A DNA stretch of 64,000 nucleotides. Source: a virus. The first letter of the stretch is position 1. Each line of letters starts with the position of its first letter. Below are positions 13,663-59,799 of this stretch, one piece after another. The notes beneath the pieces were generated by a model that saw only the letters and a program-made list of their open reading frames with translations, did no database searches and was not told the DNA's origin. The position numbers and the translations under genes were made by a program. The stretch spans positions 64,001 to 128,000 of IMG/VR virus record IMGVR_UViG_3300037010_002844, one strand, 5' to 3'.

Positions 13663-13842
13663 TCAAGTTCTTGTGGCAAGCGTCCATAATTGATCAAGCC
13701 TAAATTGCTTCTTCATCGCAGGTGTTAGTTCATGCTTCGCTGGGTTACTGTGCCAATAGTCGCCGTCGTACTCGATGATGAGGTTGAGTGATGGCACGAC
13801 GAAGTAGCCTGGTTTCAGTACTTCATTCCCAAAATCTCGTCT
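13663..13842 (-). pseudogene. Remnant of a Vsr-like homing endonuclease.
   Basis: My translation of a start-less open stretch is RRDFGNEVLKPGYFVVPSLNLIIEYDGDYWHSNPAKHELTPAMKKQFRLDQLWTLATRT*. The IEYDGDYWHS core matches AIECNG(V/L)YWHSE of the two intact endonucleases at 15352 and 17837. Confidence 0.6.
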
Positions 13843-14414
13843 TCAGACGTCAGTTCACCTGCTTGCACCCAACCACGAGGCGTCATGACAAGGTGATCTT
13901 CAGTCAAAGACAAAGTTTCTCCACCCTCCAGCTCAACCTCGATGATGTCACGTACGCCGTTTGAGGCGACAGCGACAACTTCGTCCATCTCGACGGTCTT
14001 CGTCATTTCATTGTATGACGGAAGCTTAGTTCCCACCATTCCTTGTTCAACGATTTGTCTAATGGGAACCTCACCTTGCTCAGTAAGGATATGTGTGTCA
14101 CCCGTCAAACACGAGTATGTCTTCTTCAGGATGTCGTTGACGCGGTGATCGCCCCACTCCAACTCCTTGCCGTCATTCTTCGCCTCCAAGTACAGTCGAT
14201 CGACTTTGGCGGCCAAGGGACCCGGGCGATAGATGCTGGTCAGCGTCGCGATGTCGATGATGCTCTTGGGCTTGCCTTTGACAAAGAGTCGCTGAGCGCC
14301 CTGGCCCGTGCAATTGTGAACAACGACGTCGTTAGCGACGAAATTATGATGATTTCGCACCTCGATGTCGTAGACGTGGCGCTTACCCACGCTGCGTGAT
14401 GACACAAGCTTCAA
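13815..14414 (-). CDS. dnaE: DnaE fragment 6: C-intein 5, extein, N-intein 6.
   Basis: C-intein 5 at 14313-14414 is MKLVSSRSVGKRHVYDIEVRNHHNFVANDVVVHN. The extein at 14112-14312 is CTGQGAQ...LTSIYRPGPLAAK...ILKKTYS. N-intein 6 at 13818-14111 is CLTGDTHILTEQG...LTEDHLVMTPRGW. Confidence 0.85.
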   Translation of the reverse strand: MKLVSSRSVGKRHVYDIEVRNHHNFVANDVVVHNCTGQGAQRLFVKGKPKSIIDIATLTSIYRPGPLAAKVDRLYLEAKNDGKELEWGDHRVNDILKKTYSCLTGDTHILTEQGEVPIRQIVEQGMVGTKLPSYNEMTKTVEMDEVVAVASNGVRDIIEVELEGGETLSLTEDHLVMTPRGWVQAGELTSEDEILGMKY

Positions 14415-14772
14415 GCGTCGTCTCCTTCTTTTCTAGCAACTGTAGGTCATATCCACTGACAAGTGCACACTTGAGCGTCGGATGCAACGTTACGAATGCG
14501 TCAAACTTCTCCCTAGCATCATCACGCCACCAGCCCTTGACTTCCACGTACACCCGCTTAAAGAGCTCCAACGTCGGTCATTGACGATGGAAGATCATGT
14601 ACGCCTCTCTTGTGAGCTGGATCCTGATCTCCTCCTCGCTGAAGCCCTCGTCCATGCAATGACGCCAGTTGTCATACAGGTCGACGACGCCATTCTTTCC
14701 GTTCCCGTTGCCCGCTGAGTGCAGAAAGTACAAAGGGGCGCTACGATGAGCGGAGCGCGTCCGTACAATCAC
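14383..14772 (-). pseudogene. T7 endonuclease I-like homing endonuclease remnant with an in-frame TGA (intein-5 gap).
   Basis: ORFs 14578..14772 and 14383..14571 are in the same frame and are separated only by TGA 14578-14580. VYVEVKGWWRDDAREKFDAFVTLHPTL resembles T7 endonuclease I FVETKGLWESDDRKKHLLIREQHPEL as I recall it. The upstream PD motif is not preserved. Confidence 0.55.
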
Positions 14773-14856
14773 ATGTTGCGGAGTCGTGGGCCTGTTGCGT
14801 CTCTGTAAGGCGACATGGCCACGGTCGCGGCGAAACCTGCGACCAAAACGCCCGCC

Positions 14857-15333
14857 TCACGTCAATCCACGAGCTTCGTAACCACTGCTAGACCCAATCA
14901 ACTCGTCGTCTTCGGTTAGGTGCTGTGCCTCAACCCACCCGCGATTCTTCGTCAAGATGGGATGATCAGCGGTGCAGACAAGCTTCTTGCCGTCGTCGAA
15001 CACGAGCTCGATGCACTCCTTGGGTCCTTGGTCGTAAACGACGTCGACGACTGATGTGGTGAACTGCTGCTTGACTTCATCGAAGACCGTCACCTCGTCA
15101 CCGACATGGACGTCCTTGATCAACTTGTACGAGTCATCGCCCATCAGCACTGCCGTGTCCTGGTCGACGCACTGGAAGATGCCTGCCCACTTGCCTTTCT
15201 CGTAGACCTCGTAAGGTTTGGGATCGGTGAAATCAATGACGGCCGGGTGCATGTGCTGCTCGAACCAGGTCTTGATGTCATTGAATGATACCGCATTTGT
15301 ATGTGCGTCAACGTTAGCAACGACTTTTGCCAT
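14857..15333 (-). CDS. dnaE: DnaE fragment 5: degenerate C-intein stub, extein, N-intein 5.
   Basis: MAKVVANVDAHTN is a decayed block-G-like stub. The extein at 15172-15294 is AVSF...DPKPYEVYEKGKWAGIFQ. N-intein 5 at 14860-15171 is CVDQDTAVLMGDD...CTADHPILTKNRGWVEAQHLTEDDEL. Confidence 0.8.
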   Translation of the reverse strand: MAKVVANVDAHTNAVSFNDIKTWFEQHMHPAVIDFTDPKPYEVYEKGKWAGIFQCVDQDTAVLMGDDSYKLIKDVHVGDEVTVFDEVKQQFTTSVVDVVYDQGPKECIELVFDDGKKLVCTADHPILTKNRGWVEAQHLTEDDELIGSSSGYEARGLT

Positions 15334-15351
15334 GTCTTTGTAAAGGTACTT

Positions 15352-17151
15352 TCACAGGTCCATAACGTACACCGCGTTGGAGCAACCAAAGATCTTAAAA
15401 AGCCTGTGTTCCATCGCCATCTCTTCTTGTGATGCGATCCCCGGAATCGCCCTGACAGCAAATCTATCGATACGATTTTGTCCGTCCGTCCACCAAAACC
15501 TAGGCTGCGTCATGTGATCAAATCTAAAACCAGATAGTTCATACGCCCGGCCAGTGCCACCCAACCTCATGTCACGGTATGTGATCATTTTTTGGTAACC
15601 ATGCTCACGTGACCAATCCCTGGCAGCGTTGATCAACCGCGACATGCCTCCAACGACGATGGTATCGCGGGCCGTTGAAACCCGCGCCAATTCAATTGTC
15701 TTAGATCCCCACTTAGTCTGCTGGTGCGGTTTTCGCAATGTCAATGCACAAATAATGTTTCCAGCAATGTCCTCTAGCCAGAACGAATGCGACGAAGGAG
15801 TGTTTCCATCGAGGTGATTGTTCGCCATGAACTGAGCGGTGATGGCTGGACGACCGCTGCGAAGATGTAGCTTTCGTGCCATCACGCGAGTAGCAAGACC
15901 AAGCTTTACCCTGATCATGCTTTTGATGATGTTTTTCTTTACATCATGGTGCCATTCATCGTCGAAGATATGTAGCAACGACACACCACGCTCAAGAGCG
16001 CGAGTCGACTTGTCTTGGTGATACGATGGTGGAGTACCGGTCGCCTCACTGTGCCAATAGACACCGTTGCACTCGATGGCAATCCTTCCGTTACCTGACA
16101 CGATGTCCAGCTCATAAGGCGCGATTGACTGTCTGTCGTTGGCGATGGCGTTCGAATCGAGCTTGACGAAGAAATCGAACACCTCACGATGCCAGCGAGA
16201 GAAATTAGCCGGGTAGCACGTTGAACACACCTTTCCCTTGTAAAGGACGTTAAAGGGAACAATATCAGGTACGTTACAACTGACGCATGTCACATGCACC
16301 GGTGTTGAGTATCCAGCAAACTCAAATTTTTCGATGTTCCACCTCGACCGCAGTGCATCAACTCGCCGTTCGACCTCTTCGAGAGACAACCGAAAAGGAG
16401 AGTTAGTGCCGTTCTCGATAAGGCGTTTTCTAGTCTCGATGATCGAACGTTTGATATCTTCAGAATTAGCGTTCCGAGACCAATGATTCAAGCGAACGCC
16501 TTCGCCGATCCGTTCTGATCGCCGTTTGATCCTATCGTCAGTTTCTGACGTCTGACCGTGCTGCGTCCAGTGTTTTTCTACTTGCCATTTTTCAGTCAAT
16601 GCTCGAGAGATGTTATGCGCAGCTCTTGTGATAGATTCATTATTTTCTTTAGTTTGTCCTGTTCTCCAGTGCCCGTGTTTTTTGATGAAATCACGACAAC
16701 CTTGTGCGGCCCTTCGAACCGATTCAGACGTTGTTTCTGACAGCCCCTTGTTCCATGCAGGCAATGATTTTGATTTCCGGCTAAGCGCACCTCTTACTTG
16801 AGAGTTCTTCTTGCTACAAACTCCACAGAGACGTTCATATCCCGTTTGAAAGGTCATGAACTTGACCGGCCCTGAACACTGAACGCACGGTCCAGGGTGC
16901 TCTCGAAAAAGAAGGTACGCAGCCTCCGCATTGAGCCCGTGCTTTTTAAGGAGATGTGCGCGGAGCGAATTTAGGCTAGCTTTTCGCAATGGATCATTGC
17001 ACTGTGGGCACCTCGAAGGACACGATGTCATCGCCGGGCCCGAGCTCCCTCGCAAGGATGGTGCCCCTGTTGCTGGTGACGATTCGTTGGTCGCCGTAGA
17101 CGCCTCGTGTCGTTCCATCGTCGAGTTGGATCTCAAACCACCCTCTTTCAT
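15352..17151 (-). mobile_element. Free-standing homing-endonuclease gene (zinc finger, NUMOD3-like repeats, Vsr-like nuclease, conserved C-terminal domain) at junction 4.
   Basis: Contains CPQCNDPL...HLLKKH, WNKGLSETTSESV and TGQTKENNESI repeats, and YELDIVSGNGRIAIECNGVYWHSE. The C-terminus is YRDMRLGGTGRAYELSGFRF...FWWTD...IFGCSNAVYVMDL. It is a paralog of 17837..19570. The true start is probably an internal Met (17118 or 17031), because the track start overlaps fragment 4. Confidence 0.75.
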
Positions 17152-17851
17152 GTCGTTCCTTTTTGATGATGAGCTCGATGGCGCGCTCGATGAGCCGCAT
17201 CGTTTCTAGACCTAGGAGGTCGTACTTGATGAACTCTCCGATCTTCTCAAGGTGTTTATAATTTACGCCCTCGACCCAAGGTGACTGTGGCTCGCGGACG
17301 CCGGCCTTGCCTTTGGACGTCACCAAAGGCATCTTGTTGGGCAAATCGTCTGCAATCAGCACACCACCCGCGTGACGACCGAGACTACGATTCTGCTTGA
17401 AGAGGATCTTGATCGACTCGGCGACGACCGGGTACTTCTCAATGAAGCCGCGAAACGACGGGCTGACCGGCTGCTTACACTCTGGGCTACAGCCCTGGCA
17501 GATGGACTTCGACTCCGGGCCCTTAGGAGCCCTGCAGTGGAAGGCCATGGCCTCATCGTAGGTCAAGACGAACAGATTCTTGTCGTCGCCTTCCTTCATC
17601 GTCGCCTTACGGACCTCGTCCTCGACGGTCCGCGTGGCAGCGTTGGTCTCCTCGAATGGGATGCCGTAGAACTTGCCGATATCCTTTACAAGCGTTTTTA
17701 GTTTGAAACAGTTATAATTGCTGATGGGAACGACGTTTTCCCACCCAAAAAAGTTTCGAAGTTCATCAAGAACCTCATCTCGCCTGGCAAGATCGGTGTT
17801 GTGAACAACGACGCTCTTGTTGGACGCCAAAAATGAATGAACGACCATCAC
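16994..17851 (-). CDS. dnaE: DnaE fragment 4: very short C-intein 3, palm/fingers extein, degenerate N-intein remnant.
   Basis: Starts MVVHSFLASNKSVVVHN (17798-17848, ATG at 17848). The extein is TDLARRDEVLDELRNFFGWENVV...SLGRHAGGVLI...IKYDLLGLETMRLIERA. The tail at 16997-17140 is WFEIQLDDGTTRGVYGDQRIVTSNRGTILARELGPGDDIVSFEVPTVQ. Confidence 0.85.
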   Translation of the reverse strand: MMVVHSFLASNKSVVVHNTDLARRDEVLDELRNFFGWENVVPISNYNCFKLKTLVKDIGKFYGIPFEETNAATRTVEDEVRKATMKEGDDKNLFVLTYDEAMAFHCRAPKGPESKSICQGCSPECKQPVSPSFRGFIEKYPVVAESIKILFKQNRSLGRHAGGVLIADDLPNKMPLVTSKGKAGVREPQSPWVEGVNYKHLEKIGEFIKYDLLGLETMRLIERAIELIIKKERHERGWFEIQLDDGTTRGVYGDQRIVTSNRGTILARELGPGDDIVSFEVPTVQ

Positions 17852-19570
17852 ATGAATCCTAACTCAACTACAGTTGAATTTACATGCGCTCGTTGTGGTC
17901 GAAACCACGAAACGCTACGAGCATTGAAGATCCACGAGGCACGACACAGGCGAGAAGACGCCAGGCCTCCCAAACAGGTGTCAACTTACGCGTGTCCGTG
18001 GTGTGAGGCGTCATATGACAGCGGGCGTAAGTTGACATTGCACTGCACAAAAACGCACCAAAAATCACCCGTCGTTGTGTATGAAACAAGGTACCCAGGG
18101 TGCAGGAAGACGTGCATCGATTGTTGCGACTGGGTCAGGTTCATCGATCAAGAAAAAGGATACCCCGAACGGTGTCCACGTTGTAGCCGAAAACACGCAT
18201 ACGCGTCCAAGGGCACCTCGTCATGGAACAAAGGCCTGACGAAAGACAATGACGAACGCATGTCAGCCAGTGCTGCAAACATGCGAGCTCACTACAAGGA
18301 ACACGGTCACCACAACTCCGACAAGACAAAGGAAAACAACGAAAGCCTTAAACAAAAGGCGGCAAAAATCAGCGACAGCCTGCGGAGGTATTATGCAACG
18401 CACAGCGGCTGGTCACTTGGCCTGACAAAGGATACGTCTAGCATCATTGAATCTCGCAGTAAGAAGATCAGCGCTTCGTTGAAAGGACGATTCTTTAGCG
18501 ACGTAACGCTTGAAAAAATGCGCAAGGCAAAGTTGCTGACGCACGACGAGGTACAAAAACGCCTCAAAGAAAAGCAGCTTAAACTCATTGACGAATATGT
18601 CGATACTGTCACCAAAGCGCGCATCGAATGCACGATATGTTCAACAATATTTGAGCGTTGCGTTGGCGCAGTGTTCAACAACGAGGCCAAGTGTCCCACC
18701 TGCTTTCCGCCTTGGTCAGACAAAACGAGCAGGTGGCAACAGGACGTCTACGCATTTATCCAGACGCTGGCACCTGACGCAGTCCTTAGCGATCGTAAGA
18801 CGCTCGGCGGAATGGAGCTCGACATACTCATTCCATCGCGCATGTTTGCCATCGAGTGCAATGGCCTATACTGGCACAGCGAGGCCGCCAATAGATTTGA
18901 GCACGATCACGCGGAAAAGAAGAGATTGCTGTCCCTCAAAGCCGGCGTATCGCTTTTCACGTTATTTGAGGATGAGTGGCGCGACAAACGACCGATAATC
19001 GAAAGCATGTTGCGCCATCGCCTTGGGTTTTCTACCAAAGTCGATGCGCGTAAGTTGAAAGCAGAACGCTGCGAGCCCGAAGAAGTTCGAGAATTCATCA
19101 ATCAGTGCCACCTCGACGGTCACGTGAGGGCCCAATTTGCCGTGCGATTGGTAACCTCATCGGGCGAAATCGTAGGCGCCTGCAGCCTTAGGTGGGCACG
19201 AAATGGGGCAGACAGAACGACGATTGAGATCGCTCGCCTGTGCTTCAAGCTTGGCACACATGTACGAGGCGGGGTGTCAAAATTGCTATCAAAGGCAAAA
19301 GCTATAGCAAGAGAAAACAATGCAGCGAGGTTGATGTCTTACTCAGACAATCGCTTGGGAGGAAACGGTTATGCCACCTCAGGCATGAAGTTCAACGGTA
19401 CCACAGTCGCTCGCTTCTGGTGGACTGACTTCATGCATCGTTACGACAGGTTCAAGTACCGAGCCAACAAGAAGCAAGGTCTAACAGAAAAACAGGTAGC
19501 GGAGGCTGCCGGCGTTTATCGCATCTATGGCTGTAGCAACTCTCGCTACGTCTTAGACGTCACAGCGTGA
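17837..19570 (+). mobile_element. Homing-endonuclease gene on the opposite strand inside the intein-3 gap (C2H2-like finger, NUMOD3-like repeats, Vsr-like nuclease, conserved C-terminal domain).
   Basis: Contains CARCGRNHETLRALKIHEARH, then WNKGLTKDNDERM and SDKTKENNESL and GLTKDTSSIIESRSKKIS, then MELDILIPSRMFAIECNGLYWHSE. The C-terminus is YSDNRLGGNGYATSGMKF...FWWTD...IYGCSNSRYVLDV. Its ATG at 17837 overlaps, head to head, the ATG at 17848 of fragment 4. Confidence 0.8.
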
Positions 19571-19872
19571 CGCTAATGTCATCGTCAAACTTTGAGGACG
19601 CATTTTCTTTGAGCCAGAAGATGGCGTCAATTGTGCGCTCGTCGGCGTCGGCGTCATCGCACGACGTAGCCCCATAGTATGGGGGCCAAATCGTGCTCAA
19701 ACCCTTTAACGCGCAGTTTGACCTGACAATCTTGAAATTCAGGATTTTCTGCAGCTCTCGTCTGAGCTATTCTTTCCAGGCCAGACACTATCACATCATC
19801 TGCTCGGCAGAATCGCCGTTGTCTGTAAGCTGCACCGCATCAACGTTGCTCGGACACGGTCCCAACTCCAGC

Positions 19873-20610
19873 TCAAATTTCATAGTTGCGCTCGCTGTGG
19901 TCTGTTCTTCTCTTAGACGCGCACCAATCGCTGCAAAAATTGTCTCCTTCGCCACACGCAAGGAACGTGCCAGGAATGACGCCCATGCAATAACCGACGT
20001 CATGTGATGGATCACCTCCACTTAGAATGGACGTATTGAACGGTACCACGTGGAATCTGTGATCGTCTTCAACAGTCAGGTCGACGTATCTAGCGTTGGA
20101 AGAGCCCCAACCACCGTGCTCGATCGATACGACCTCAACGCTGCCGCATGATGCCATCAATTCATCTCCGACCTTAAGGTCGCGGCAGTACACGATGACG
20201 CCGTCAGCTCTGACAAATTTGTGACCGGGCACCACCAAAATGTGGCCCAACGTACCATCATTGGCCCTAACTCTGACCCAGACAGCGTCCTCGAATGGCC
20301 GCAAATTTCTAGCATAGGTCGCAGTTACTGCGTGTGGCATTCCATCGCCTCCCAGGACGACGTCGCCGACAATGATGTCAACAGCTCGCTTATGAGTGCC
20401 GTCTGTCATGACGACAAGATGGTCCTCGTGGACGCAGTCGATATCAGGAGCACCAGAGTTATGTGTCAGCACCCAATCGCTATCGTTGTTGGACACCCAA
20501 AACGTATGCTGGCCTTCGACCTCGATGTCGATGAGTTCTACACTTTCATCGACAACCTCGATAGCTTCAATTTTGGCCGTGCTTGCTGATGAGATGTTGG
20601 GTTCCTGCAT
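19873..20610 (-). CDS. dnaE: DnaE fragment 3: C-intein 2, 7-aa extein, long N-intein 3.
   Basis: C-intein 2 at 20458-20610 ends ELIDIEVEGQHTFWVSNNDSDWVLTHN. The extein SGAPDID is at 20437-20457. N-intein 3 runs down from 20436 as CVHEDHLVVMTDG...VVPGHKF...ARYVDLTVEDDHRF (to about 20053). About 60 unrelated codons follow. Confidence 0.8.
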   Translation of the reverse strand: MQEPNISSASTAKIEAIEVVDESVELIDIEVEGQHTFWVSNNDSDWVLTHNSGAPDIDCVHEDHLVVMTDGTHKRAVDIIVGDVVLGGDGMPHAVTATYARNLRPFEDAVWVRVRANDGTLGHILVVPGHKFVRADGVIVYCRDLKVGDELMASCGSVEVVSIEHGGWGSSNARYVDLTVEDDHRFHVVPFNTSILSGGDPSHDVGYCMGVIPGTFLACGEGDNFCSDWCASKRRTDHSERNYEI

Positions 20611-21532
20611 AGTCCCTGTGCTCTAGATTGGCAATCGTATGGTACAAACCTTGTCGACGAAGTTCACCATAGAAGTCATTCATGTACACGACGTCGATGC
20701 GCTGACCAGACGCCACAACGACTTCCCGTGAACGTGCGTTTGAGTTAAGCAACTTTGAGAAACGCGATTTGCCTTCTCGCACACCTTTCAACTCCACGTA
20801 TCGGTCCTCATCACTGAACCAAAAGTCTGGAGTGTAACACTTCTCTTTGCCATCGATGACAACATGGAAAGACCTATGTTCATAGAATGGCATCTTACCG
20901 AGGTGCAAGCAATATCTGTAGTAGTCGGCTTCGAACGAGCTCTTGAAGTACGGGCTGTTTAGGATGTCGGAACGAAAACACGAGCGTCCGTTCACATGTG
21001 AAGCAACCATATCACGTGACTGTGCCTCGCGGGTGCACCGTTTGGAACAGAACCGCGGCACGTAGCTCTTCTTGGTGACGATCGGTTCGCTACAAACTTC
21101 GCATACCAACGTGTGGCGGTCAAACCTCGATGCAGCGAAACATTTGGGTGAACAGAACCTGCGATTGACGTTCTTCGTTGAGAAAGTGCCTAGACACTGT
21201 ACACATGTCAGTGTACGGAGCTCATTCTTTGTCAGCGCTTTCGCAGTGTACTTGTGCCTGCACGCATTCGAACATAGTTTTCTGTTGTTGTGACACTTTG
21301 GAACGTAGAACTCATCGCCGTACTCGACGCACGTCTTCACAAGCCTCGAGGGCATGGGAGCGTGTGACATCAGCTTCCTGTGAGCGACGGCACACTCATC
21401 AGTGCAGTACGGGCGATGGAGCCTACTACCAGAACCCTTGCAGTTGGGCTCATAGTTGAACTGAAACATAATACCACAGTGTTTACACTGTTTCTCAATG
21501 ATGCTCATAGTGGTACGTGTACAGCTCGTCAC
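20567..21532 (-). mobile_element. Free-standing homing-endonuclease gene in the intein-2 gap (four CxxC...FCSxxC zinc modules plus a T7 endonuclease I-like PD-(D/E)XK domain).
   Basis: The repeats are CKHCG...RPYCTDEC, CVEYG...RKLCSNAC, CVQCL...RRFCSPKC and CEVCS...PRFCSKRC. The C-terminal KCYTPDFWFSDEDRYVELKGVREGKSRFSKL matches the T7 endo I YTPDF...FVETKG core as recalled. Confidence 0.7.
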
Positions 21533-21992
21533 TCGTCGACAGCTCAGATGTATACTTCTTCACAGGTTGTCCATCAGGACCCACTGTCAACCACACATGA
21601 TTTTCAGAACACGTGAACGTAGTACCATTCACCTTCACGCGGTACGTCTTCTCATGTTTTGTGGTCATGGTGAACGTAACTTTACGGTGTGAGCCATCCT
21701 GTGAGACAACGCTGTCACCGACTTTCACGTCTCGAAGCGCGGACGACGAACCATCTGACATCAATACCTTTGTGTCTGGCGACAGACACCTGTGAACGCT
21801 AAGGAATCGCGCGAAAGGCAGGTCCCAGAACAACGGGTCCAAGTCGGTGATGTATAGGACGTAGGCGACCAGAGAGCCACCGCCCGAATTGTGGACTGCA
21901 ATACCTTCCACGTTGTAAGTGTGGCTGTTTTCCACACACAGGTCTACGACCTCACCCTTATACGGTACGACAGTCTTACTTCTGAGCTTCAT
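21495..21992 (-). CDS. dnaE: DnaE fragment 2: C-intein 1, 33-aa extein, N-intein 2.
   Basis: C-intein 1 at 21888-21992 is [35 protein letters not shown]. The extein at 21789-21887 is [33 protein letters not shown], matching the DnaE GSAAGSLVAY..ITDIDP..FERFLNPER region. N-intein 2 at 21498-21788 is [13 protein letters not shown]...CSENHVW. Confidence 0.85.
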
Positions 21993-22076
21993 GATATGCG
22001 TTCGCTCTCTTCATGTAAGCCTTGAGATCCCTGTCTAATAGACATTTGACGAGGATCAGGTAAACTTAGTTGAGTT

Positions 22077-23762
22077 TCATTCAACCTCGATTAGGTCATC
22101 ATCTTCAGTCAAGTGTTGTGCTTCAATCCACCCACGATTCTTCGTCAGAAACTTATGCTCCTTGGTGCACCTGATCTTCTTACCGTCATCAAACTCGAGT
22201 TCTAGCAGCTCCTCATCAACCTGATACCTGAAGATCTGAGTCACCATCTGATCAACACCATATGCATCCTTGATAACGTCGCCCACCTTGATGGTGCCAA
22301 TGGGAGCATGCATGCCGTCAGCCATTAGAACCCGCGTCTCAGGAACGAAACAACCGCGGGCTGGGCCGGTAAGGCACACATTGCGTGCCAGCTCCATGAT
22401 CTTCTGGTAGGAAATGAAGTAGTCAGAGTTTTTCATCACCTTAATGACGCCGAGTTCCTCCTTGAGGCGCGCGATATACTCTGGCTTGTCTTGAAGACCA
22501 CGCTTCACCATGCCCACCTTACAAAGCGAGATGAGGTGATTGAACGAGGTCGTGCCTTCGGGCACCAACAACCTCGTCGGAAACTTGGGCGAACGATCGG
22601 GTGGAATCTCCCCGATGACACTGTGTGCGATATCGTGAGTCCGCTCAATGGCGTCACAGACGACTTCATCGTCATACCAGTCGGTGCCTTCCTTGGAGCG
22701 CTGGTACTCATCCCACATCTGTTGGGCGTTCTTCGGATAGAGCTCACACTTCAGCTCATCCTTCGACTTCGGAATCGCGTCAGGATTGATCTCCTGGTAG
22801 TTCATCCAACCCAGGCGCTTGTAGAGCTCACGGTCCTTCCAACGATCGGGATTATAGTAGTGAGCATCGCCGGTGACGATCAGCTGCTTGTTGAGCCCAT
22901 TGCGACGAGCGAACTCCAGGATCGCGCGGTTGACGAGGTTCTGCGCCGGTAGGCGATTGAACTGCAGCTCGAGGAAGTAGTTTCCTTCGCCGACTGCATC
23001 GACCATGTGCTGGTAGGTATTGCCCACCGCGACAACGCATTTCTCGAGCAGCACAGGGTCACTGAGCAACCGTGCGTCGAGCTCGTCAAACTTGTACTGT
23101 TGGATTTCCTGGAATATGGAGTACGCCGGCATGCCGCCGATACAAGCGCTGCTGACGATGATGTCGCCGCCTTTGGCTGCCTCTTTGAGGACAGCATGGT
23201 CAATGCGCGGGAACTTGTAGAAGCCCTTCAAGAATCCCTTCGAACATGCTGCGAAGATCGCCAACAGGCCCTTCTGGTTCTTGGGCAGAATGACTAGGTG
23301 ATGCCGTCGGTTGACGGGATTGAAGTGTTTGGTCGATTTGGACTCTTCCTCGTTTTCGACAGTCAAGGCGTTGGACATCTCAATGTCCTCAGTCTCATCA
23401 TTTTCATCGATGGTGGCGATGATCTTGGTCTGCAGCTTTTCCTGCTCCTTAGCAAGCTTGGCCGCAACCCTCCTGTCTCCCTTCGCCTGCTCTGCGAGTT
23501 CGACGTCCTTCTTCCATTGCTCCAGGTCGGGATGGTAGTACGCCTCGACGCCGGGAATGTACTTGAACGACTTTCCCTTATTGGCCTTGGCCCACTCCTC
23601 GACCCACAGTTGAGCGTGGGCATAGGAGTTCATGTTCCCGTGCTCGGTGATGGCATGGCCATCGAGCCCGTTCTCCATGCACCACTTGAAGTGTTCATCG
23701 GGATAGCCCAAACCATCGAAGGGCGCATTACGAGAAGCCCGTGTGGTTGTGCAAACCGACAA
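22077..23762 (-). CDS. dnaE: DnaE fragment 1: PHP and N-terminal half, plus N-intein 1.
   Basis: Contains FDGLGYPDEHFKWCMENGLDGHAITEHGNMNSYAHAQ (PHP) and ends ...CLTGPARG, followed by N-intein 1 at 22080-22352 (CFVPETRVLMADG...CTKEHKFLTKNRGWIEAQHLTEDDDLIEVE*). The track start (TTG 23762) is an artefact. The real N-terminus is in another frame (see 23728..23820). Confidence 0.85.
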   Translation of the reverse strand: MSVCTTTRASRNAPFDGLGYPDEHFKWCMENGLDGHAITEHGNMNSYAHAQLWVEEWAKANKGKSFKYIPGVEAYYHPDLEQWKKDVELAEQAKGDRRVAAKLAKEQEKLQTKIIATIDENDETEDIEMSNALTVENEEESKSTKHFNPVNRRHHLVILPKNQKGLLAIFAACSKGFLKGFYKFPRIDHAVLKEAAKGGDIIVSSACIGGMPAYSIFQEIQQYKFDELDARLLSDPVLLEKCVVAVGNTYQHMVDAVGEGNYFLELQFNRLPAQNLVNRAILEFARRNGLNKQLIVTGDAHYYNPDRWKDRELYKRLGWMNYQEINPDAIPKSKDELKCELYPKNAQQMWDEYQRSKEGTDWYDDEVVCDAIERTHDIAHSVIGEIPPDRSPKFPTRLLVPEGTTSFNHLISLCKVGMVKRGLQDKPEYIARLKEELGVIKVMKNSDYFISYQKIMELARNVCLTGPARGCFVPETRVLMADGMHAPIGTIKVGDVIKDAYGVDQMVTQIFRYQVDEELLELEFDDGKKIRCTKEHKFLTKNRGWIEAQHLTEDDDLIEVE

Positions 23763-25585: not shown

Positions 25586-25621
25586 GCCCTCAATGTAACA
25601 CAGGAAGCGATATTTAGTTCA

Positions 25622-41676: not shown

Positions 41677-42258
41677 TCAAAGAAGGCCGTGCTTCTTGAC
41701 CTGTTCAATGACTCGCTCATGAACATTGACGCGAGTGCCCTCACAAGACACTAGCACCGTGTCGGGATCATGCTTCCCGTGATCTGCGTAAAGGACTCGA
41801 ACACGAGCCTGGAGGGTGTCATCCTTCTCATAGACGTCATCCTTGCGATCGATGTGAGATCGACCGTGCAATACGATTGTCAGGTCGGGCTTACGGAGGC
41901 GTGAACACAGTTCACGGGTCCATTGGGGATTTGCCCCGCCTGCACAACCGTAGACGATGGCCGACAGCGCCCAACGATCGAGCACGACAAAGTCATTGTC
42001 GGCCTCGAGTTCGGGCAGCTGATAGGTTTGAAAGATTCGCTTGTTGATGTACTGCGTCCACTGAAAGAGATTGGGCATCGACTTGGCAATACCTTTTCTC
42101 AACATCCAGTAGATGGCCTTGTGCGTAAAGTTGTCGTTGAATGGTACTTCAACGAGAGTTGCGCGGTGACCATTGTGCTTCAAATATGCAGTCAACAGCT
42201 TTGACTGCGTCTCCTTGCCCACCTTGTCAGGGCCCTCAATGACGATCAACTTGGCCAT
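41677..42258 (-). CDS. tmk: Thymidylate kinase.
   Basis: LIVIEGPDKVGKETQSKLL (P-loop) and VLDRWALSAIVYG (DRY-like motif). Confidence 0.8.
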   Translation of the reverse strand: MAKLIVIEGPDKVGKETQSKLLTAYLKHNGHRATLVEVPFNDNFTHKAIYWMLRKGIAKSMPNLFQWTQYINKRIFQTYQLPELEADNDFVVLDRWALSAIVYGCAGGANPQWTRELCSRLRKPDLTIVLHGRSHIDRKDDVYEKDDTLQARVRVLYADHGKHDPDTVLVSCEGTRVNVHERVIEQVKKHGLL

Positions 42259-42266: not shown

Positions 42267-43031
42267 TCAGACGTACAGTGCGCGGAGATTGCCGTCAGGC
42301 ATCACCAGCTCGAACGCCTCGAGGCTGGCCTGAAATTGTCCGGTCATCTGGGCGAGCTTCAGCATCGCTTCCGCGATGTGCCGCACTTCGACCTGAGCGT
42401 GCTTCGAGTAGCGCAGCCTCAGGAAGTGGACGAAGCTTCGAAAGTTGAACATCACGTCAGCCGTGATCTGATTGCCGTAAGGTAGATAGAACCTCGCGGT
42501 CTCCTTGGCGCGCTTGCGTGGCACTCCCTTGGTCACGAGTCGCTCCAACGTTTCATGGTAGCGTTCCATCGCCTGTTCCATGTGATCGATGTAACGAGCA
42601 CGTTCTTCATCGTCCCAATCGAATGGCACGTAGTACTTGTCGTCCTTCAGCTCCTTATATCGAGCCGATTCTGCATTGACAGAAACGCCGATGCGGTGCT
42701 TGATCAGGTGGATGTGCGTGGCAATGTCAGTCGTCACCAGGAAGTGCAGAGACGACTTCTCGAAAGGCGTCTCGTGACCAGCAGAAGCGAGGTCCTTCAA
42801 CAACTTCGGAAGTCGGGCACGCTTCTCGTCGGTCAGATCCCGCGAGGTACTGGTCCAGGCTGACATGGCATGGCTCTGATCGCCACCGTAGATGCCGACC
42901 AGCTCGACGGTGTTGGGACCAGCGCCTTTGCCCTTGATCTTGATGGGCTCCGGAGGAGGCGAAGAAATAGTCGGCACCTCAACTTGGGGCTGAGAACCTT
43001 TGCTGGTTTTTGCGGATTTCTTCTGCTTCAT
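42267..43031 (-). CDS. thyX: FAD-dependent thymidylate synthase ThyX.
   Basis: ThyX signature IKHRIGVSVNAESARY (RHR..S......S.RY). Confidence 0.9.
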   Translation of the reverse strand: MKQKKSAKTSKGSQPQVEVPTISSPPPEPIKIKGKGAGPNTVELVGIYGGDQSHAMSAWTSTSRDLTDEKRARLPKLLKDLASAGHETPFEKSSLHFLVTTDIATHIHLIKHRIGVSVNAESARYKELKDDKYYVPFDWDDEERARYIDHMEQAMERYHETLERLVTKGVPRKRAKETARFYLPYGNQITADVMFNFRSFVHFLRLRYSKHAQVEVRHIAEAMLKLAQMTGQFQASLEAFELVMPDGNLRALYV

Positions 43032-48128: not shown

Positions 48129-49592
48129 TCAGCTCAGCCCTGAACTGCCCGAACCTTCGCTCCCTCCGTCGCCAAAGCCGGACTTTTTCATCTTGTCGCC
48201 GAGCAGGGGGTCATTGCGAAGCTCCTTCCACTTCACGCGAAGGGCGCGCTTCACTTCATCCTCGTCTTCCTTGACGGCTGCGTCCAACGAACCGGCGTTG
48301 CCAACGATCTCGAACTTGCTTTTCGAGGTATCGATTTTTACCGAATAGACGAGGCCATCACGGCCCGCACGGTTCTTGGCGACGTAGAGGCGACCAAATC
48401 CCGTAGCCTTCTCGTGAGCGCGTCTCGAGATGCTCAACACCACGTCAGCGACCATCGCCTTGCCATAGGCCTCACTCATGTTGCCAAGGTCAACAATGTC
48501 GCTGTTGGAGCCTTCCTTGTTGGACTGCGATGCGGTCCAGATTGGGATGCTCTTCTCCGCTGAGAAACCGCGAAGTTCCTCGTAGATCAGCTTCAACTCA
48601 TGACGCAGCGAATCGTACTGCCGCGTCGATCGCATGATGTCAGCGTAGTCGATGATGATGAGGCCAGGCCTGAAGCCCTTGACGTCCAACCGCTCGATGT
48701 GATTGCGAAGGGTGTAGATACTGGCCGTGTTGGTCGGGAACTCCTTGATGATGAGGCGACCCAACTTCATGCCTTTGTAGTTGTCGAGGACTTTCTCTTT
48801 GTTGTCAATGACGTGGTTAGAGTCGATGTCACAGAGGTTTGAATCATAGCGGCGGCCGACGGCCGCCTCAGAGAGCTCAAACGTGTAGTGAAGAACGTCG
48901 ACCTGATTGCGCAGTGCGTTGGCGCCCAGGAACGTCAACATGTGGCTCTTGCCCACGCCGGTGGGAGCAACGATGACGCCGATCTCGCCGCTACCCAGGC
49001 CACCGTTGAGAATGTCCTTCTTGTCGAGCTCGTCTAGTCCCGTGGCCACGCAGTTGCGTTGAAGTTGGGTGAAGCGCGCCTCGAAGTCATTAAAGAAATC
49101 ATGGCCCAATTGTGGGGCAGTGCCCACCATCACTGCCTTCTTGATGCCTTCGACAATTGACTCGTATTTCTCGGCCTGCATGTCATCGACCGCACTCTCC
49201 AGCGCGGCCTTGAGGGCCTGCTTGCGACAGAAGTCCAGCGACTTTTCCTTGACGTACTGGAGGTCACCCGGGTCAGGGTTAGCCCGCATACGCTGCAGGT
49301 AGTCGATGATCTGATCACGGAGCACCGTGTCTGTGCCCACCTTCAACTCATCACGGATGATGGTGATGAGTAGTTGCAGGGTCGGAAAGACCTTGTATTT
49401 CTTTGCGTAACCGAAATAACGATCAGCCAAGAAGGCGAGGTACTTCAGTTCTAGATACCCATTGTCAAAAACCTCGAGCATCTGCTCGGCAAACTGCCTG
49501 TCGACCAACAAGGCCTGGACGAACTTCTCCTGAAATGACTTTCCGTACGTTCCGAATGTTGCCTTGGTGGTGATCCTGTCGTCGCTCATCAT
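48129..49592 (-). CDS. dnaB: DnaB-family replicative helicase (T4 gp41-like).
   Basis: Walker A GVIVAPTGVGKSHM, Walker B LIIIDYADIM, and a RecA-like C-terminal domain. No intein. Confidence 0.85.
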   Translation of the reverse strand: MMSDDRITTKATFGTYGKSFQEKFVQALLVDRQFAEQMLEVFDNGYLELKYLAFLADRYFGYAKKYKVFPTLQLLITIIRDELKVGTDTVLRDQIIDYLQRMRANPDPGDLQYVKEKSLDFCRKQALKAALESAVDDMQAEKYESIVEGIKKAVMVGTAPQLGHDFFNDFEARFTQLQRNCVATGLDELDKKDILNGGLGSGEIGVIVAPTGVGKSHMLTFLGANALRNQVDVLHYTFELSEAAVGRRYDSNLCDIDSNHVIDNKEKVLDNYKGMKLGRLIIKEFPTNTASIYTLRNHIERLDVKGFRPGLIIIDYADIMRSTRQYDSLRHELKLIYEELRGFSAEKSIPIWTASQSNKEGSNSDIVDLGNMSEAYGKAMVADVVLSISRRAHEKATGFGRLYVAKNRAGRDGLVYSVKIDTSKSKFEIVGNAGSLDAAVKEDEDEVKRALRVKWKELRNDPLLGDKMKKSGFGDGGSEGSGSSGLS

Positions 49593-51563: not shown

Positions 51564-52013
51564 TCACTGCCTCCCCGTGCTACCGAAGCCGCCCTGTCCG
51601 CGATCAGTCAACGATAGCTCTTCCGAGCCCTCGAAGACCGCCTGAATAACTGGCGCAATCACCAATTGGGCAATCCTGTCGCCTTTTCGAACATAGAAGT
51701 GAGTGTTCGAAGAATTGCGCAGGATGACCTTCACCTCGCCTCGGTAGTCAGAATCAATGGTTCCTGGTGAGTTCAACACGGAGATTCCATGCTTTGCAGC
51801 CAGACCTGACCGCGATCGAACCTGTCCCTCGTACCCAGGCGGAATTTCGAGGAACAATCCCGTCGAGATCAGTGCCTGGCCATGCGCCCTGACTTCCTTG
51901 TCCTCGTCAGCAATGATGTCACAGCCCGCCGCGCCGGCCGTTTGATAGGCCGGCGCATTGGGACCGCGAAACTTGATGGTGACCTTGGTGACGAAGTAGT
52001 CCTTGTCAGTCAT
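51564..52013 (-). CDS. dut: Trimeric dUTPase.
   Basis: AGAAGCDI, GQVRSRSGLAAKHGI, PGTIDSDYRGEV and GGFGSTG motifs. I placed the start at ATG 52013 (MTDKDYF), which overlaps the recA stop (ATGACTGA). Confidence 0.9.
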   Translation of the reverse strand: MTDKDYFVTKVTIKFRGPNAPAYQTAGAAGCDIIADEDKEVRAHGQALISTGLFLEIPPGYEGQVRSRSGLAAKHGISVLNSPGTIDSDYRGEVKVILRNSSNTHFYVRKGDRIAQLVIAPVIQAVFEGSEELSLTDRGQGGFGSTGRQ

Positions 52014-53250
52014 CGCCCACGACCTCATCGTCATCAGAGTCAGGCGTTTCGCCTTCTCCCGCCACCTCGCCACCGTGAACGGTCAATGCTGCGTCAATGA
52101 CCTTGTCGATGAAAGGCTTGAAGACCTCGTCCTTCATCAAATCACCGAAGTCGTCCTTGTAGAACTTCTTCTCGATCAGGACTTCACCCGTCTCAGCATC
52201 GCTGACGAGCAGTTCCTTCCAGGCCTGGGTACCTGAAATCTTGATCTCCACCTTCTTCACGTTCCCCTTGGAGTCCGTGTAATCGGCAAAGACCTTGTTC
52301 TTATCGCACCATGAGCGACACTCATCGAAGATGAAGGTGTGTTCCACAATGCCTTTGCCGAAGTGAATGTCGAACTCACACTTTCGGAAAGGCGCCGCGA
52401 CCTTGTTCTTCTTGATAGAGACGGTCACGTGAATGCCGATGATGTTGCCTGCCTTGTCCTTGATGGGGCTGCCTGAGCCCAATCGAATCCGCAGCGAGGC
52501 GTGGAACGGAATGGCCTTGCCACCCGGGGTCGTCATCGGATCACCGTGCATCACCCCGATCTTTTCGCGGAGCTGGTTGATGCAGATGAACGTCACGTTA
52601 TTCTGACCGATGACGCCAGTGATCTTGCGCATACCCTTGCTGATGACGCGGGCCTGCAGACCGACCGTGTTCTGGTCGTAGTCGCCGTCGAGCTCTGCCT
52701 TCGGCGAGGTGGCAGCGACGGAGTCCCAAATCACGAGGATCGGGATGTTTTTGTCGACGATCTGCTTCGCCTTGTTGATCGTGGACTCCACGATGGCGAA
52801 GACCTCCTCGGTGCAGTGGGTATCGCAATAGACGAATTTCTTCGCCACGTTGATGCCCATGTGCCGCAGCTTATCAAGCGGCGTCGCGTTCTCAGTGTCT
52901 ACGTAAACAACGAGACCGCCCATCGACTGGACGACTGCTGCTGCATGGTATGCAAGGTGTGACTTGCCCGATGAAGGCAGGCCAGAGATCTCGATGATGC
53001 GTCCCTCGGGATAACCGCCCCCGAGAGCATTTCGAATCGCGTAGTTCAGTTGGATCGACCCTGTGTCGATCCACCGCTTAACAACCGTCGGTGCTTCGTC
53101 CTCACTCAGATTGTACGCCACCCGGACGCCGAACTCCTTGTTGAGCGCCTTGATGAGGTCGGAGGTGAGATCATCGATCTCATCCCCCGGCTTCTTCTTA
53201 GACGTCTTCTCGGAATCGACGTTGGGGGCTGCCTTAGCTGCCCTCGCCAT
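52006..53250 (-). CDS. recA: RecA-family recombinase.
   Basis: Walker A ISGLPSSGKSHL. ICINQLREKIGVMHGDPMTTPGGKAIPFHASLRIRL is nearly the RecA [35 protein letters not shown] segment. Confidence 0.85.
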   Translation of the reverse strand: MARAAKAAPNVDSEKTSKKKPGDEIDDLTSDLIKALNKEFGVRVAYNLSEDEAPTVVKRWIDTGSIQLNYAIRNALGGGYPEGRIIEISGLPSSGKSHLAYHAAAVVQSMGGLVVYVDTENATPLDKLRHMGINVAKKFVYCDTHCTEEVFAIVESTINKAKQIVDKNIPILVIWDSVAATSPKAELDGDYDQNTVGLQARVISKGMRKITGVIGQNNVTFICINQLREKIGVMHGDPMTTPGGKAIPFHASLRIRLGSGSPIKDKAGNIIGIHVTVSIKKNKVAAPFRKCEFDIHFGKGIVEHTFIFDECRSWCDKNKVFADYTDSKGNVKKVEIKISGTQAWKELLVSDAETGEVLIEKKFYKDDFGDLMKDEVFKPFIDKVIDAALTVHGGEVAGEGETPDSDDDEVVGDD

Positions 53251-54621: not shown

Positions 54622-55209
54622 TCAGGGAAAGCGACCCTTCTCCTGCATCGTCGAGACGTAGTCTGCGGTCATGACAACGTGAGCCAGCAACGGTTCCTTG
54701 AGGCAGTACTGTTTGTTCTCTTCGACGACCCAACCGTCGTTCAAGAGGATGGCCAGCGTCTCATCCCGCGTCAACTTCAGACCGTAGTGATTGCAGAGGA
54801 AGACGCCGCGATGAGGCACCGACATGTGATCGATCTCGCGGTTGTACGAATAGAGCTCACCGCGCTTCGCCTGCCAGTCTTCGGCAAGGACGTAGTAGTC
54901 CTTCTCATGGTCGCCGACCTTGCCCAGATCGTGGAAAAGGCAGCTGATGATGAGCGAGTCCTTCGGGACCGTCCACCCCATCGACTTCACATACGTCATG
55001 GCATTGCCAAGGACGCGCAACGAATGGTCCACCAACCCGCCCGGAAAGGCGTTGTGATAATCCTTCTTACCCGAGGCAGGACACAGTGCTAGGCGCTCAC
55101 CCAGGCCGTCAACCAAGGCTAGGGCATCAGTGGAGCGCGGGCCGAGCTTTTCGCACAATGCGCGGTACTTGTTGAAGCTCTTCTCAATCTCTTCTGCTGT
55201 CAGCGACAT
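54622..55209 (-). CDS. HD-domain phosphohydrolase.
   Basis: H...SCLFHDLGKVGD (HD motif), with downstream His/Asp residues. Confidence 0.8.
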   Translation of the reverse strand: MSLTAEEIEKSFNKYRALCEKLGPRSTDALALVDGLGERLALCPASGKKDYHNAFPGGLVDHSLRVLGNAMTYVKSMGWTVPKDSLIISCLFHDLGKVGDHEKDYYVLAEDWQAKRGELYSYNREIDHMSVPHRGVFLCNHYGLKLTRDETLAILLNDGWVVEENKQYCLKEPLLAHVVMTADYVSTMQEKGRFP

Positions 55210-55231
55210 GTAAGAATCGTACCCTTCACGT

Positions 55232-56458
55232 TCACCGTGTACAAGTAATGAACTCGCACTTCAATGGAAAATAATTGACGTAGCCCGGAACTCGCACCTT
55301 GTCAATTGATTTGACGATGTCAATGCAATCAGGCGCCACATCGAGCAGTAGCGCATCGTGCAGCACAAAGATGGGCCTGACGCCGGGCAATCCCGAGAAC
55401 TGGTTGACGAGCTCTGAAAACCCGAGGAGGCTAACGTCAACACCGGTCGACTGGGCATACGTATTGATGAGGATGTGATCAAGCGGTTCCTCGATCAACA
55501 GCGACCTGCCATAGCGATTGGTGACGTGGCCTGTCTTGATGAACTCGTCCTTGACACGCTTCAACAGTTCCTTGGTACGAAAGAATCGCTTGACCTTGCC
55601 AACGAAGTCGTTGAGTTCCTTGCCTTCGATCCCGAGCACCTCACCCAATGAATGCTTGCCAGATCCGTAGAGCTCAGAGATAACGGCCTGCTTGATGGCG
55701 TTCCGTGAGGCGGTCCCAGCAAACAACTCACGGGAAATGAACGTGTACATGTCAGCGTCTTCGCAACGACCACCGGCCTCGTACAGCAGGACACGGGCCT
55801 CCAATGCCGCGAAGTCAACGTAGGCAATGGCACCACCTTCCTCGACGGGTACTACCATGTCGCGGAACTCTCGCTTCAAGCTAAGGATCGCGGGCCCGCT
55901 TGCGGTCGTCAAGCGCCCAGTGCGTGTTCCGAAGCGATCATAGTCAACGATGGTTGCCATGCCGTCGCTGTCAGGTTGAAAGCTCTCAATCACCTTAGCA
56001 TTGTTTCCCGCGGACGCCCGCAGCTCTAGGTACCGAGCCTTGTCAACACGTGCAGGTTGCAACGACCTGAGGACGGCCGATTGGGGAACCCACGTGTTCA
56101 CGTAATAATCTCGTGATAGGGTGTCCAAGGCAACAGTGGCCTCATTTATGAGGCTTTTTACGAGGCCGCGGTGTTCCCTTTCTGGCATCACCTGTGACCA
56201 CGGCGGCTGCACGTTAGAACCCGACATCAACAGGTTCATTGCATTGATGAATCTCTCGGGTGGTCGAGAGGAAATCTCCTTGCCCGCTAGACGCATCACA
56301 GTGTCCAGGCACCTGTCAGAACGCAGCTTCACCTGGCCCGACAGGTGCCAGACGCCCAAAGGCACATCGTCGACCCAGCGGTAACCCGTGTCGACGTACA
56401 GGTGACGTTCCGTGCCCATCAACCGCGAGTCAATGCAAAAAGGTTCTGTCACGAGCAA
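55232..56458 (-). CDS. Minimal family-A (PolA-like) DNA polymerase domain.
   Basis: Motif A is YVDFAALEARVL, motif B is RNAIKQAVISELYGSG, motif C is IFVLHDALLLDV. Only 408 aa, with no recognisable exonuclease domain. Confidence 0.65.
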   Translation of the reverse strand: MLVTEPFCIDSRLMGTERHLYVDTGYRWVDDVPLGVWHLSGQVKLRSDRCLDTVMRLAGKEISSRPPERFINAMNLLMSGSNVQPPWSQVMPEREHRGLVKSLINEATVALDTLSRDYYVNTWVPQSAVLRSLQPARVDKARYLELRASAGNNAKVIESFQPDSDGMATIVDYDRFGTRTGRLTTASGPAILSLKREFRDMVVPVEEGGAIAYVDFAALEARVLLYEAGGRCEDADMYTFISRELFAGTASRNAIKQAVISELYGSGKHSLGEVLGIEGKELNDFVGKVKRFFRTKELLKRVKDEFIKTGHVTNRYGRSLLIEEPLDHILINTYAQSTGVDVSLLGFSELVNQFSGLPGVRPIFVLHDALLLDVAPDCIDIVKSIDKVRVPGYVNYFPLKCEFITCTR

Positions 56459-59796: not shown

Positions 59797-59799
59797 GGC

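Follow-up and report, generated by a model that had tools for sequence, protein, structure and literature searches.

The 64 kb window analysed here comprises positions 64,001 to 128,000 of the IMG/VR virus record IMGVR_UViG_3300037010_002844, part of a phage genome of about 309 kb. Between positions 54622 and 56458, two open reading frames (ORFs) lie where the original prediction had placed them: a PolA-like gene for a protein of 408 amino acids, here named mini-PolA, and an HD-domain hydrolase. On sequence grounds, mini-PolA is a genuine compact family-A DNA polymerase domain without a proofreading domain. The gene is a fixed part of the core gene set in a large clade of uncultured big and jumbo phages. 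Beside the TTG start at 56458, a GTG at 56452 is an alternative, and database gene callers use an ATG at 56419 (Met14, 395 aa). The TTG or the GTG is the likelier start, because the homologs start at positions equivalent to residues 1-6 and residues 2-13 are conserved among them.

Profile searches placed mini-PolA in family A (PF00476, PHROG 17, Pol I), in agreement with the predicted identity. The Pfam DNA_pol_A profile (PF00476) matched residues 172-385 with 40.7 bits (gathering cut-off 34.3), and PHROG 17 'DNA polymerase' gave an E-value of 3.6e-17. A profile of the mini-PolA family matched the Bst, Taq and Klenow polymerases at E ~4e-10 and, in hhalign, Escherichia coli Pol I with a probability of 97% (E 8.7e-11). 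The NCBIfam equivalogs of Pol I (TIGR00593 / NF004397) scored 17 bits, far under their cut-offs of 600 and 720. The top-scoring profile of all libraries tried was RTasPolA of PADLOC (59.9 bits, E 5e-17, residues 153-380).

Residue equivalences to E. coli Pol I were set by hhalign, and the E. coli numbering was verified on the polA gene itself. The predicted motifs A, B and C are all present. Mini-PolA T180/G181/R182 correspond to T666/G667/R668, D215 to D705, E220 to the steric gate E710, Y238 to H734, R252 to R754, K256 to K758, I260 to F762, Y264 to Y766, Q336 to Q849, H367 to H881, D368 to D882, A369 to E883 and D373 to E887. The metal-binding aspartates of motif A (D705) and motif C (D882) are retained as D215 and D368. 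The third active-site carboxylate, E883 of the HDE motif, is missing (A369). Its loss is a real deviation, since the catalytic residues given for the Klenow fragment are D705, D882 and E883 (PMC10520511). It is a deviation inside family A and no ground for excluding mini-PolA from the fold family.

Conservation was counted over 134 full-length representatives, down to 26% identity. G181, R182, D215, E220, Y238, R252, K256, Q336 and D368 are invariant, D215 and D368 also in a set of 121 sequences. Threonine 180 is present in 129/134 and Y264 in 112/134 (Phe in 21); the position of H367 is a histidine in 126/134. This conservation makes an enzymatic activity of mini-PolA likely. The alanine after the motif C aspartate, already pointed out in the original prediction, is borne out: the position is Ala in 110 representatives, Gly in 10, Asn in 4, Ser in 3 and Asp in 3. 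With alanine in 110 of the 134, the 'HDA' motif is a family trait under selection and no lesion of one gene. The position equivalent to F762 is Ile in 71 and Leu in 57 representatives, and never Phe or Tyr. This deviation is mild, because Leu at this position (B3) occurs in several ordinary PolA clusters (PMC10201439). Published virome surveys of PolA retain only F, L or Y at position 762 and would thereby discard the Ile-762 half of the mini-PolA family (PMC9069017). This filter may explain why the family went undescribed.

An AlphaFold2 model of mini-PolA, based on a 59-sequence alignment, had a predicted local distance difference test score (pLDDT) of 94.3 and a predicted template modelling score (pTM) of 0.91. 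It shows the Klenow-type polymerase-domain fold. In comparison with known structures (comparison value and number of residues superposed, out of 408), the best matches were a KlenTaq variant (22.0, 342), Klenow (20.9, 368), the apicoplast polymerase (20.8, 354) and T7 DNA polymerase (20.5, 372), followed by DpoZ (19.3, 355) and Pol theta (18.2, 359). Mitochondrial RNA polymerase (10.7, 269), T7 RNA polymerase (8.5, 286) and the virion RNA polymerase of phage N4 (7.8, 284) had lower values. Foldseek agreed with these results. Since 342-372 of its 408 residues superpose on the large fragments of Pol I-type enzymes, mini-PolA is an essentially complete polymerase domain.

Neither the additional fold elements nor the small steric-gate residue of single-subunit (T7-like) RNA polymerases was found in mini-PolA. 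A motif C without the glutamate is also a feature of T7-like RNA polymerases. These observations bear on the proposal that mini-PolA is no DNA-dependent DNA polymerase and serves as an RNA polymerase, a primase-like initiator, a reverse transcriptase or a terminal transferase on the PolA fold. For divPolA2, a possible identity as an RNA polymerase has been suggested (PMC11348598). The proposal would also be in line with the top PADLOC match being the PolA partner of UG9 reverse transcriptases (PMC9226505) and with a window in which a primase was not seen. Considering the Klenow-type fold and the steric-gate glutamate, it is highly improbable, and the product of mini-PolA is presumably DNA and not RNA.

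Some 40-65 residues of the model remain unaligned to Pol I-type large fragments. They probably include a beta-rich N-terminal element of about 40 residues, modelled with strands at 7-9, 19-22, 26-29 and 37-39 and helices thereafter. The N-terminal region is conserved, with W28, P86, W87 and W123 invariant in the closer homolog set. Residues 1-175 had no detectable sequence similarity to the exonuclease/thumb region of Klenow (residues 324-670). They had none either to the N-terminus of divPolA1, the extra PolA described beside a regular polymerase in large phages (Yutin et al. 2024; PMC11348598, preprint PMC11188092). An exonuclease Pfam match was not obtained for mini-PolA. D10, by eye comparison only a candidate for the Exo I aspartate position, varies across the family. 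The original prediction had denied the protein both an exonuclease and any N-terminal domain. The first part is upheld and the second is too strong, as residues 1-175 are free of an exonuclease signal yet conserved. A split T7-like arrangement with the exonuclease in its own gene was also considered. It is ruled out for the window, where a separate DEDD exonuclease gene was found neither adjoining mini-PolA nor elsewhere. A naturally exonuclease-free PolA of about 46 kDa (an estimate from 408 aa) could be of practical interest.

The mini-PolA family is viral only and very large, and it is missing from reference databases. A word-indexed protein search retrieved 437 proteins, the best 120 of which all have about 400 aa. 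An exhaustive profile search of 1.84 billion representatives yielded 558 clusters at 50% identity with E<=1e-30 and 3514 with E<=1e-3. The best 150 matches cover the ~400-aa profile nearly end to end; most are about 400 aa long and about a dozen are shorter fragments. IMG/VR contains 192 confirmed loci, on contigs of up to 369 kb, and a protein identical to mini-PolA sits on a 309 kb contig. The family thus comprises at least 558 clusters and 192 IMG/VR loci. A scan of GTDB with one genome per species (185,579 bacterial and archaeal species), seeded with two conserved family peptides, gave no confirmed relative, which rules out a cellular or prophage origin. Among annotated phage records, tblastn detected no family member; the best matches were ordinary PolAs with at most 26% identity. 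The BFVD models held none either, with at most 20% identity for the best match.

The HD-domain protein adjoins mini-PolA as predicted; its gene starts 22 nt downstream. The metal ligands H...HD...D (H62, H93, D94, D158) are invariant in 43 sequences. The gene follows mini-PolA in 72/72 IMG/VR loci with enough flanking DNA and also in the contigs L004, L090 and L091. The HD family is large, and among best matches the HD protein is better conserved than mini-PolA (61-81% versus 44-69% identity). An apparent loss of HD in L004 and L090 was dismissed, since a profile search recovered the gene in both; the causes were a wrong gene call in L004 and an inserted gene in L090. In L004 (L004:11421-12382, ENA k141_2233850), public calls give a 176-aa minus-strand gene and an 85-aa gene over the true HD, which is on the plus strand at 11762-12382 and matches the HD profile at E 9e-102. 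Precomputed gene tables can therefore conceal the partner. In another contig (L012:1962-4109, IMGVR_UViG_3300016474_001138), mini-PolA, HD and the following small ORF are in frame without stops and form a 715-aa ORF. This could be a natural fusion, arguing for functional coupling, or an artefact of assembly or sequencing. It is given little weight, as it is a single case that may be an assembly error.

For the HD protein, the matches obtained were all below threshold: a yeast HD hydratase, HDIG, Cas3-HD and YhaM, a 3'-5' exoribonuclease (E 0.067). No significant similarity to characterised nucleases emerged from sequence and profile searches of the PDB, NCBIfam and PADLOC. Homologs in the large protein search were named 'hypothetical' or by the generic HDIG label only. 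The HD protein probably serves the same process as mini-PolA, by conditioning of 3' ends or by cleaning of the nucleotide pool. It could plausibly be a nucleotide-pool hydrolase near the dUTPase, or an enzyme that processes 3' ends for the polymerase, and the two proteins may cooperate.

The window is a phage replication and nucleotide-metabolism region (Table 1). Synteny was counted on 80 IMG/VR loci, with each neighbour scored only where the flanking DNA suffices. Across these loci, the neighbours of mini-PolA are on one strand and in one order: giant ORFs, mini-PolA, HD, small ORF, single-stranded DNA-binding protein (SSB), RecA, dUTPase, flap endonuclease (FEN) and DnaB; ribonucleotide reductase (RNR) comes next in the cluster. 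The order is also kept in contigs from ENA and Logan, including those of members at ~27-30% identity. The best match of the FEN is the 5'-3' exonuclease domain of Pol I (NF004397 positions 3-246, E 1.1e-39). The SSB ortholog in L005 has a weak match to gp32 (PF08804). A scan for promoters and terminators between the cluster genes gave no signal above shuffled background.

Table 1. Features of the window around mini-PolA, with profile matches and the number of loci that share the position.
Feature	Position	Strand	Matches and synteny
Giant ORF, 1028 aa	59800..62886	-	Upstream of mini-PolA in 44/44 loci
Giant ORF, 1002 aa	56491..59499	-	Directly upstream of mini-PolA, 50/50 loci
Mini-PolA, family-A DNA polymerase domain, 408 aa	55232..56458	-	TTG start 56458; without DEDD exonuclease
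HD-domain (HDIG-like) metal-dependent hydrolase, 195 aa	54622..55209	-	PF01966, 30.9 bits (cut-off 22)
Small conserved ORF, ~80 aa	54320..54562	-	Between HD and SSB; phmmer match in 60/69 loci
gp32-like SSB, 300 aa	53261..54163	-	phrog_1192, E 2e-20; 58/58 loci
RecA/UvsX-like recombinase, 414 aa	52006..53250	-	PF00154, E 3e-63; phrog_97, E 4.8e-73; 53/53 loci
dUTPase	51564..52073	-	phrog_135, E 4e-56; 47/52 loci; longest ORF, true start probably internal
Stand-alone FEN / 5'-3' exonuclease, 325 aa	49589..50566	-	PF02739 and PF01367; 39/39 loci
DnaB-like replicative helicase	48129..49592	-	phrog_19, E 4.5e-63; PF03796; 36/38 loci
RNR large subunit with intein, 1213 aa	44405..48046	-	
ThyX	42267..43031	-	
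dTMP kinase	41677..42258	-	
DnaE fragments (PHP, Pol III alpha, finger) and Hint/intein segments	13815..23762	-	PF02811, PF07733, PF17657, PF14890, PF05203, PF07591

The small ORF between HD and SSB is called as a gene in contigs L001-L003 and L005. Its middle part is acidic and its C-terminal tail strongly basic (…GRRKNAGKKRRK), and searches of the family libraries gave no match. Upstream of mini-PolA, every locus carries an array of giant ORFs of ~1000, 1030 and at least 1300-1680 aa, alternating with ORFs of ~86-101 aa; in the window the array occupies 56491-59499, 59529-59834, 59800-62886 and 62889-63149 on the minus strand. The 1002-aa and 1028-aa ORFs had nothing significant in Pfam, PHROGs, tblastn of annotated phages and the PDB (best PDB E 0.14). 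None of these searches bore out the predicted border with a structural module.

In agreement with the prediction, fragments of a DnaE replicase are encoded in the same window. They lie more than 30 kb from mini-PolA. DnaE is split over at least four or five ORFs (22077-23762, 21495-21992, 19873-20610, 14857-15333, 13815-14414) with flanking Hint/intein segments. Unrelated ORFs lie between the pieces, some of them on the plus strand (e.g., 17837-19570). The interruptions may represent several inteins that carry homing endonucleases, or possibly split inteins. Among the replication-related genes of the window, that of the RNR large subunit is the second to bear an intein, an intein-like insertion at approximately residues 305-653.

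The heavily interrupted DnaE had suggested that mini-PolA is a back-up for times when the splicing of the multi-intein replicase is limiting. With one residue of the catalytic triad gone, a catalytically dead scaffold is a related proposal. Both are very unlikely. The invariant catalytic residues argue against a dead protein. Mini-PolA is a fixed core gene, and its positional equivalents occur together with a regular polymerase, be it of family A, B or C (PMC11348598), so that there is no tie to an intein-laden DnaE.

The nucleotide metabolism of the window concerns a third proposal, the copying of modified DNA. A polymerase dedicated to non-canonical or modified dNTPs (deoxynucleoside triphosphates) would be compatible with the unusual residues of the dNTP pocket, Y238 (H734), I260 (F762) and A369 (E883), and the adjoining HD protein could act on nucleotides. 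The genes in the window speak for canonical dTTP synthesis: ThyX, dTMP kinase, dUTPase and RNR. The thymidylate synthase is ThyX and not a hydroxymethylase. Hydroxymethylase, PurZ or other base-hypermodification genes were not found in the 64 kb, and the only DNA-modification genes are two DNA methyltransferases. Moreover, Leu at B3 is common among ordinary PolA clusters (PMC10201439). Replication of hypermodified phage DNA as the dedicated task of mini-PolA is therefore a most improbable reading.

Further genes of the window belong to other functions. Possible anti-restriction functions are encoded at 31125-31907, 32636-33427 and 28333-28908 on the minus strand and 25496-26038 on the plus strand: besides the two N6/N4 DNA methyltransferases, there are an HNH endonuclease and a protein that falls short of the threshold for the Lar restriction-alleviation domain (27.1 versus 28.6 bits). 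An RNA-repair set on the minus strand comprises an RNA ligase (PF09414), a polynucleotide kinase-phosphatase (PF25109 and AAA_33) and an RlaP-type nucleotidyltransferase (PF10127), in the ORFs 35101-35988, 37671-38675 and 38762-39718. A 1019-aa leucine-rich-repeat-variant protein (6345-9404, plus strand), a Ros/MucR-type regulator domain (11400-12449, minus strand), two NAD-dependent sugar epimerases/dehydratases (24212-25234 and 440-1399, minus strand) and an LD-carboxypeptidase (28962-29933, minus strand) were also annotated. The Ros/MucR domain may hint at an alphaproteobacterial host.

Mini-PolA is very probably an active, dNTP-using, non-proofreading family-A DNA polymerase and a core gene of the replication-recombination cluster of its phage clade. 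Its specific role is inferred from the gene context. Among the roles named in the original prediction, gap filling or Okazaki processing together with the FEN appears to fit best, considering the synteny with SSB, RecA, FEN and DnaB and the Pol I-like nature of the FEN. The activities of Pol I would be dispersed over separate phage genes, the FEN and a polymerase domain without editing. Mini-PolA would perform short-patch synthesis on SSB-coated gaps, would replace RNA primers together with the stand-alone FEN, and would extend or fill recombination intermediates made by RecA. Bulk accurate replication would be left to the intein-interrupted DnaE. This division of labour, Pol I-like short-patch synthesis by mini-PolA and bulk replication by DnaE, has about an even chance of being correct. 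It is the most economical reading, because a Pol I-like FEN and an editing-free polymerase are locked beside SSB, RecA and DnaB with a C-family replicase elsewhere. A function that is not redundant with the replicase can be argued from divPolA1, which occupies the same slot in the phages immuto and Mel-JY01 and is found alongside regular polymerases that belong to family A, B or C (PMC11348598).

Several observations weigh against this reading. The third carboxylate (E883 in Klenow) is an alanine and H734 a tyrosine, and the activity of mini-PolA could therefore be low or altered. The set for Okazaki maturation is incomplete within the window, since DNA ligase, primase and clamp were not found there. 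The universal HD partner is left unexplained by a simple analogy to Pol I. The neighbourhood would fit a core replicase equally well.

As such a replicase, mini-PolA would be the ancestral core replicative polymerase of the lineage, working with DnaB, SSB and processivity or editing partners, possibly HD, and DnaE would be an exchangeable auxiliary. Mini-PolA is inside the replication cluster with DnaB and SSB, whereas DnaE is remote and broken by inteins. The universal HD partner is even better conserved than the polymerase, and in divPolA1 phages the PolA of the slot persists as the regular polymerase changes between families A, B and C (PMC11348598). Nevertheless, a core replicase without a proofreading domain and with the third catalytic carboxylate lost is rather unlikely: unedited replication of about 300 kb would be costly, evidence for a clamp or clamp binding was not found in the window, and the HD protein has no significant similarity to a characterised nuclease (best YhaM; Cas3-HD below cut-off). 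A further step in this direction combines both genes into a two-gene polymerase unit. HD would supply in trans the 3'-end function that was lost with the exonuclease domain, by removal of mismatched or blocked 3' termini or by healing of 3'-phosphates. In a very large clade of jumbo phages, the ancestral core machinery for DNA synthesis would then be this pair and not the exchangeable DnaE. The idea is speculative and decidedly unlikely. If true, the pair would be a new way to build a replicative or repair polymerase.

For the Pol I-like role, the comparison with known PolA systems starts with the bacterial Pol I domain (Klenow, KlenTaq/Stoffel, Bst large fragment), which provides the best sequence and structure matches. 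TGR, motifs A, B and 6 (Q849) and the two catalytic aspartates are shared, and so probably is the role; the separate phage FEN resembles the N-terminal domain of Pol I. Unlike Pol I, mini-PolA lacks the 5'-3' and 3'-5' exonuclease domains, has Ala for E883, Tyr for H734 and Ile or Leu for F762, and reads GP.ILTLK in place of the NLQNIP segment. The mini-PolA family is also restricted to viruses. A PolA cut down (nearly) to the polymerase domain is known from the split T7-like polymerases of the S-SBP1 type and from CCPol (Czernecki et al. 2023, PMC10201439). The S-SBP1-like enzymes have the exonuclease half in an adjacent gene and a Tyr at B3 (PMC10201439); mini-PolA has neither, and its B3 residue is Ile. 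CCPol occurs in staphylococcal cassette chromosome (SCC) elements and is paired with an MP protein (PMC10201439), unlike the context and viral distribution of mini-PolA. The short RTasPolA is the PolA partner of UG9 reverse transcriptases in cellular anti-phage defence operons (Mestre et al. 2022, PMC9226505). Mini-PolA differs by its neighbours, a giant ORF and HD and no reverse transcriptase, by its phage replication context and by the lack of relatives in GTDB.

Pol theta, Pol nu and APEX are PolAs with an inactive exonuclease that are used in repair (PMC10201439, PMC12926913). Like mini-PolA, they are non-proofreading enzymes beside a separate replicase, and Pol theta and Pol nu were among its sequence and structure matches. 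This resemblance and the RecA gene close to mini-PolA suggest a specialised polymerase for repair, lesion bypass or end joining, in which the altered active site (E883A, H734Y, F762I/L) could relax selectivity. The known enzymes are cellular, carry large insertions, and keep the HDE motif and a vestige of the exonuclease domain. Mini-PolA has none of the insertions specific to Pol theta and Pol nu in its 408 aa, and it is a universally kept core gene linked to FEN and DnaB and not to recognisable repair genes. A specialised repair enzyme is thus a fairly improbable alternative, which overlaps largely with Pol I-like short-patch synthesis.

The closest counterpart in position is divPolA1, in which the palm residues are conserved, the thumb is truncated and the exonuclease inactivated; its gene lies upstream of a conserved array of replication genes (PMC11348598). 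The regular polymerase of these phages varies among families A, B and C and has a less clearly replicative context; the PolA of the slot stays (PMC11348598). For the SSB, the closest cultured relatives are Microcystis phage Mel-JY01 and Flavobacterium phage vB_FspM_immuto. The gene order of the window agrees with genes 1-10 of immuto_3-5A, in which gene 1 'DNA polymerase family A' (441 aa), the divPolA1, is followed by two small ORFs, SSB, RecA, 5'-3' exonuclease, DnaB and RNR. The divPolA1 of Mel-JY01 has 408 aa and matches the immuto profile in hhalign with a probability of 99.2%; an uncultured phage of 484 kb (LR756508) also carries divPolA1. Another protein of Mel-JY01, the 428-aa 'hypothetical protein' directly upstream of SSB (L008:10598-11884), was rejected as the homolog in this slot. 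No similarity was seen, and it contains an S-adenosylmethionine lyase domain (PF23780, E 4e-10), an anti-restriction-type function inserted into the replication slot. The homolog proper has 408 aa and is encoded two genes further upstream. The profile of the 1028-aa giant ORF has matches upstream of divPolA1 in Mel-JY01 (L008:381-5531, E 5.5e-13) and in LR756508 (L009:1846-6585, E 1.2e-6). Since these homologs sit upstream of divPolA1 in both phages, the whole region looks ancestral.

Mini-PolA and divPolA1 are both a second, divergent PolA of ~410-440 aa in a large phage with a regular polymerase, and both occupy the slot directly upstream of SSB, RecA, 5'-3' exonuclease, DnaB and RNR. Exonuclease activity is expected in neither. 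The derived motif C D-A-x-x-x-D is common to both, in contrast to D-E-x-x-x-E in canonical enzymes. The sequence similarity between them is marginal and weaker than that of mini-PolA to Pol I: the mini-PolA family matched the immuto profile with a probability of 27% (E 6.6e-4) and the Mel-JY01 protein with 87% (E 4.5e-6), and tblastn with mini-PolA returned no divPolA1 record. Canonical Pol I is a much closer match for the mini-PolA family (E 8.7e-11) than for divPolA1, whose immuto profile matched E. coli Pol I with a probability of 80% (E 1.4e-5). Mini-PolA keeps TGR, the steric-gate glutamate and the motif C histidine, for which immuto divPolA1 has TSR, His and Tyr. The N-terminal regions have no detectable relationship, the HD partner is absent from divPolA1 phages, and the mini-PolA family is far more numerous. 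Because slot and derived motif C are common to both, mini-PolA is regarded as the counterpart of divPolA1 in position and probably also in ancestry, as a relative that has evolved more slowly. Alternatively, the slot may have been filled by in-situ replacement with another PolA, a theme of the divPolA1 study (PMC11348598).

As a second, divergent PolA that lacks an exonuclease and occupies the conserved replication slot of large phages, mini-PolA is not wholly new. Big phages were recently observed to carry a divergent PolA without proofreading as a fixed gene, next to a regular polymerase that is interchangeable, and mini-PolA extends this observation. Knowledge of its function would clarify the division of labour between jumbo-phage polymerases. 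To the known picture, the mini-PolA family adds a motif C without the third carboxylate and an invariably linked HD hydrolase.

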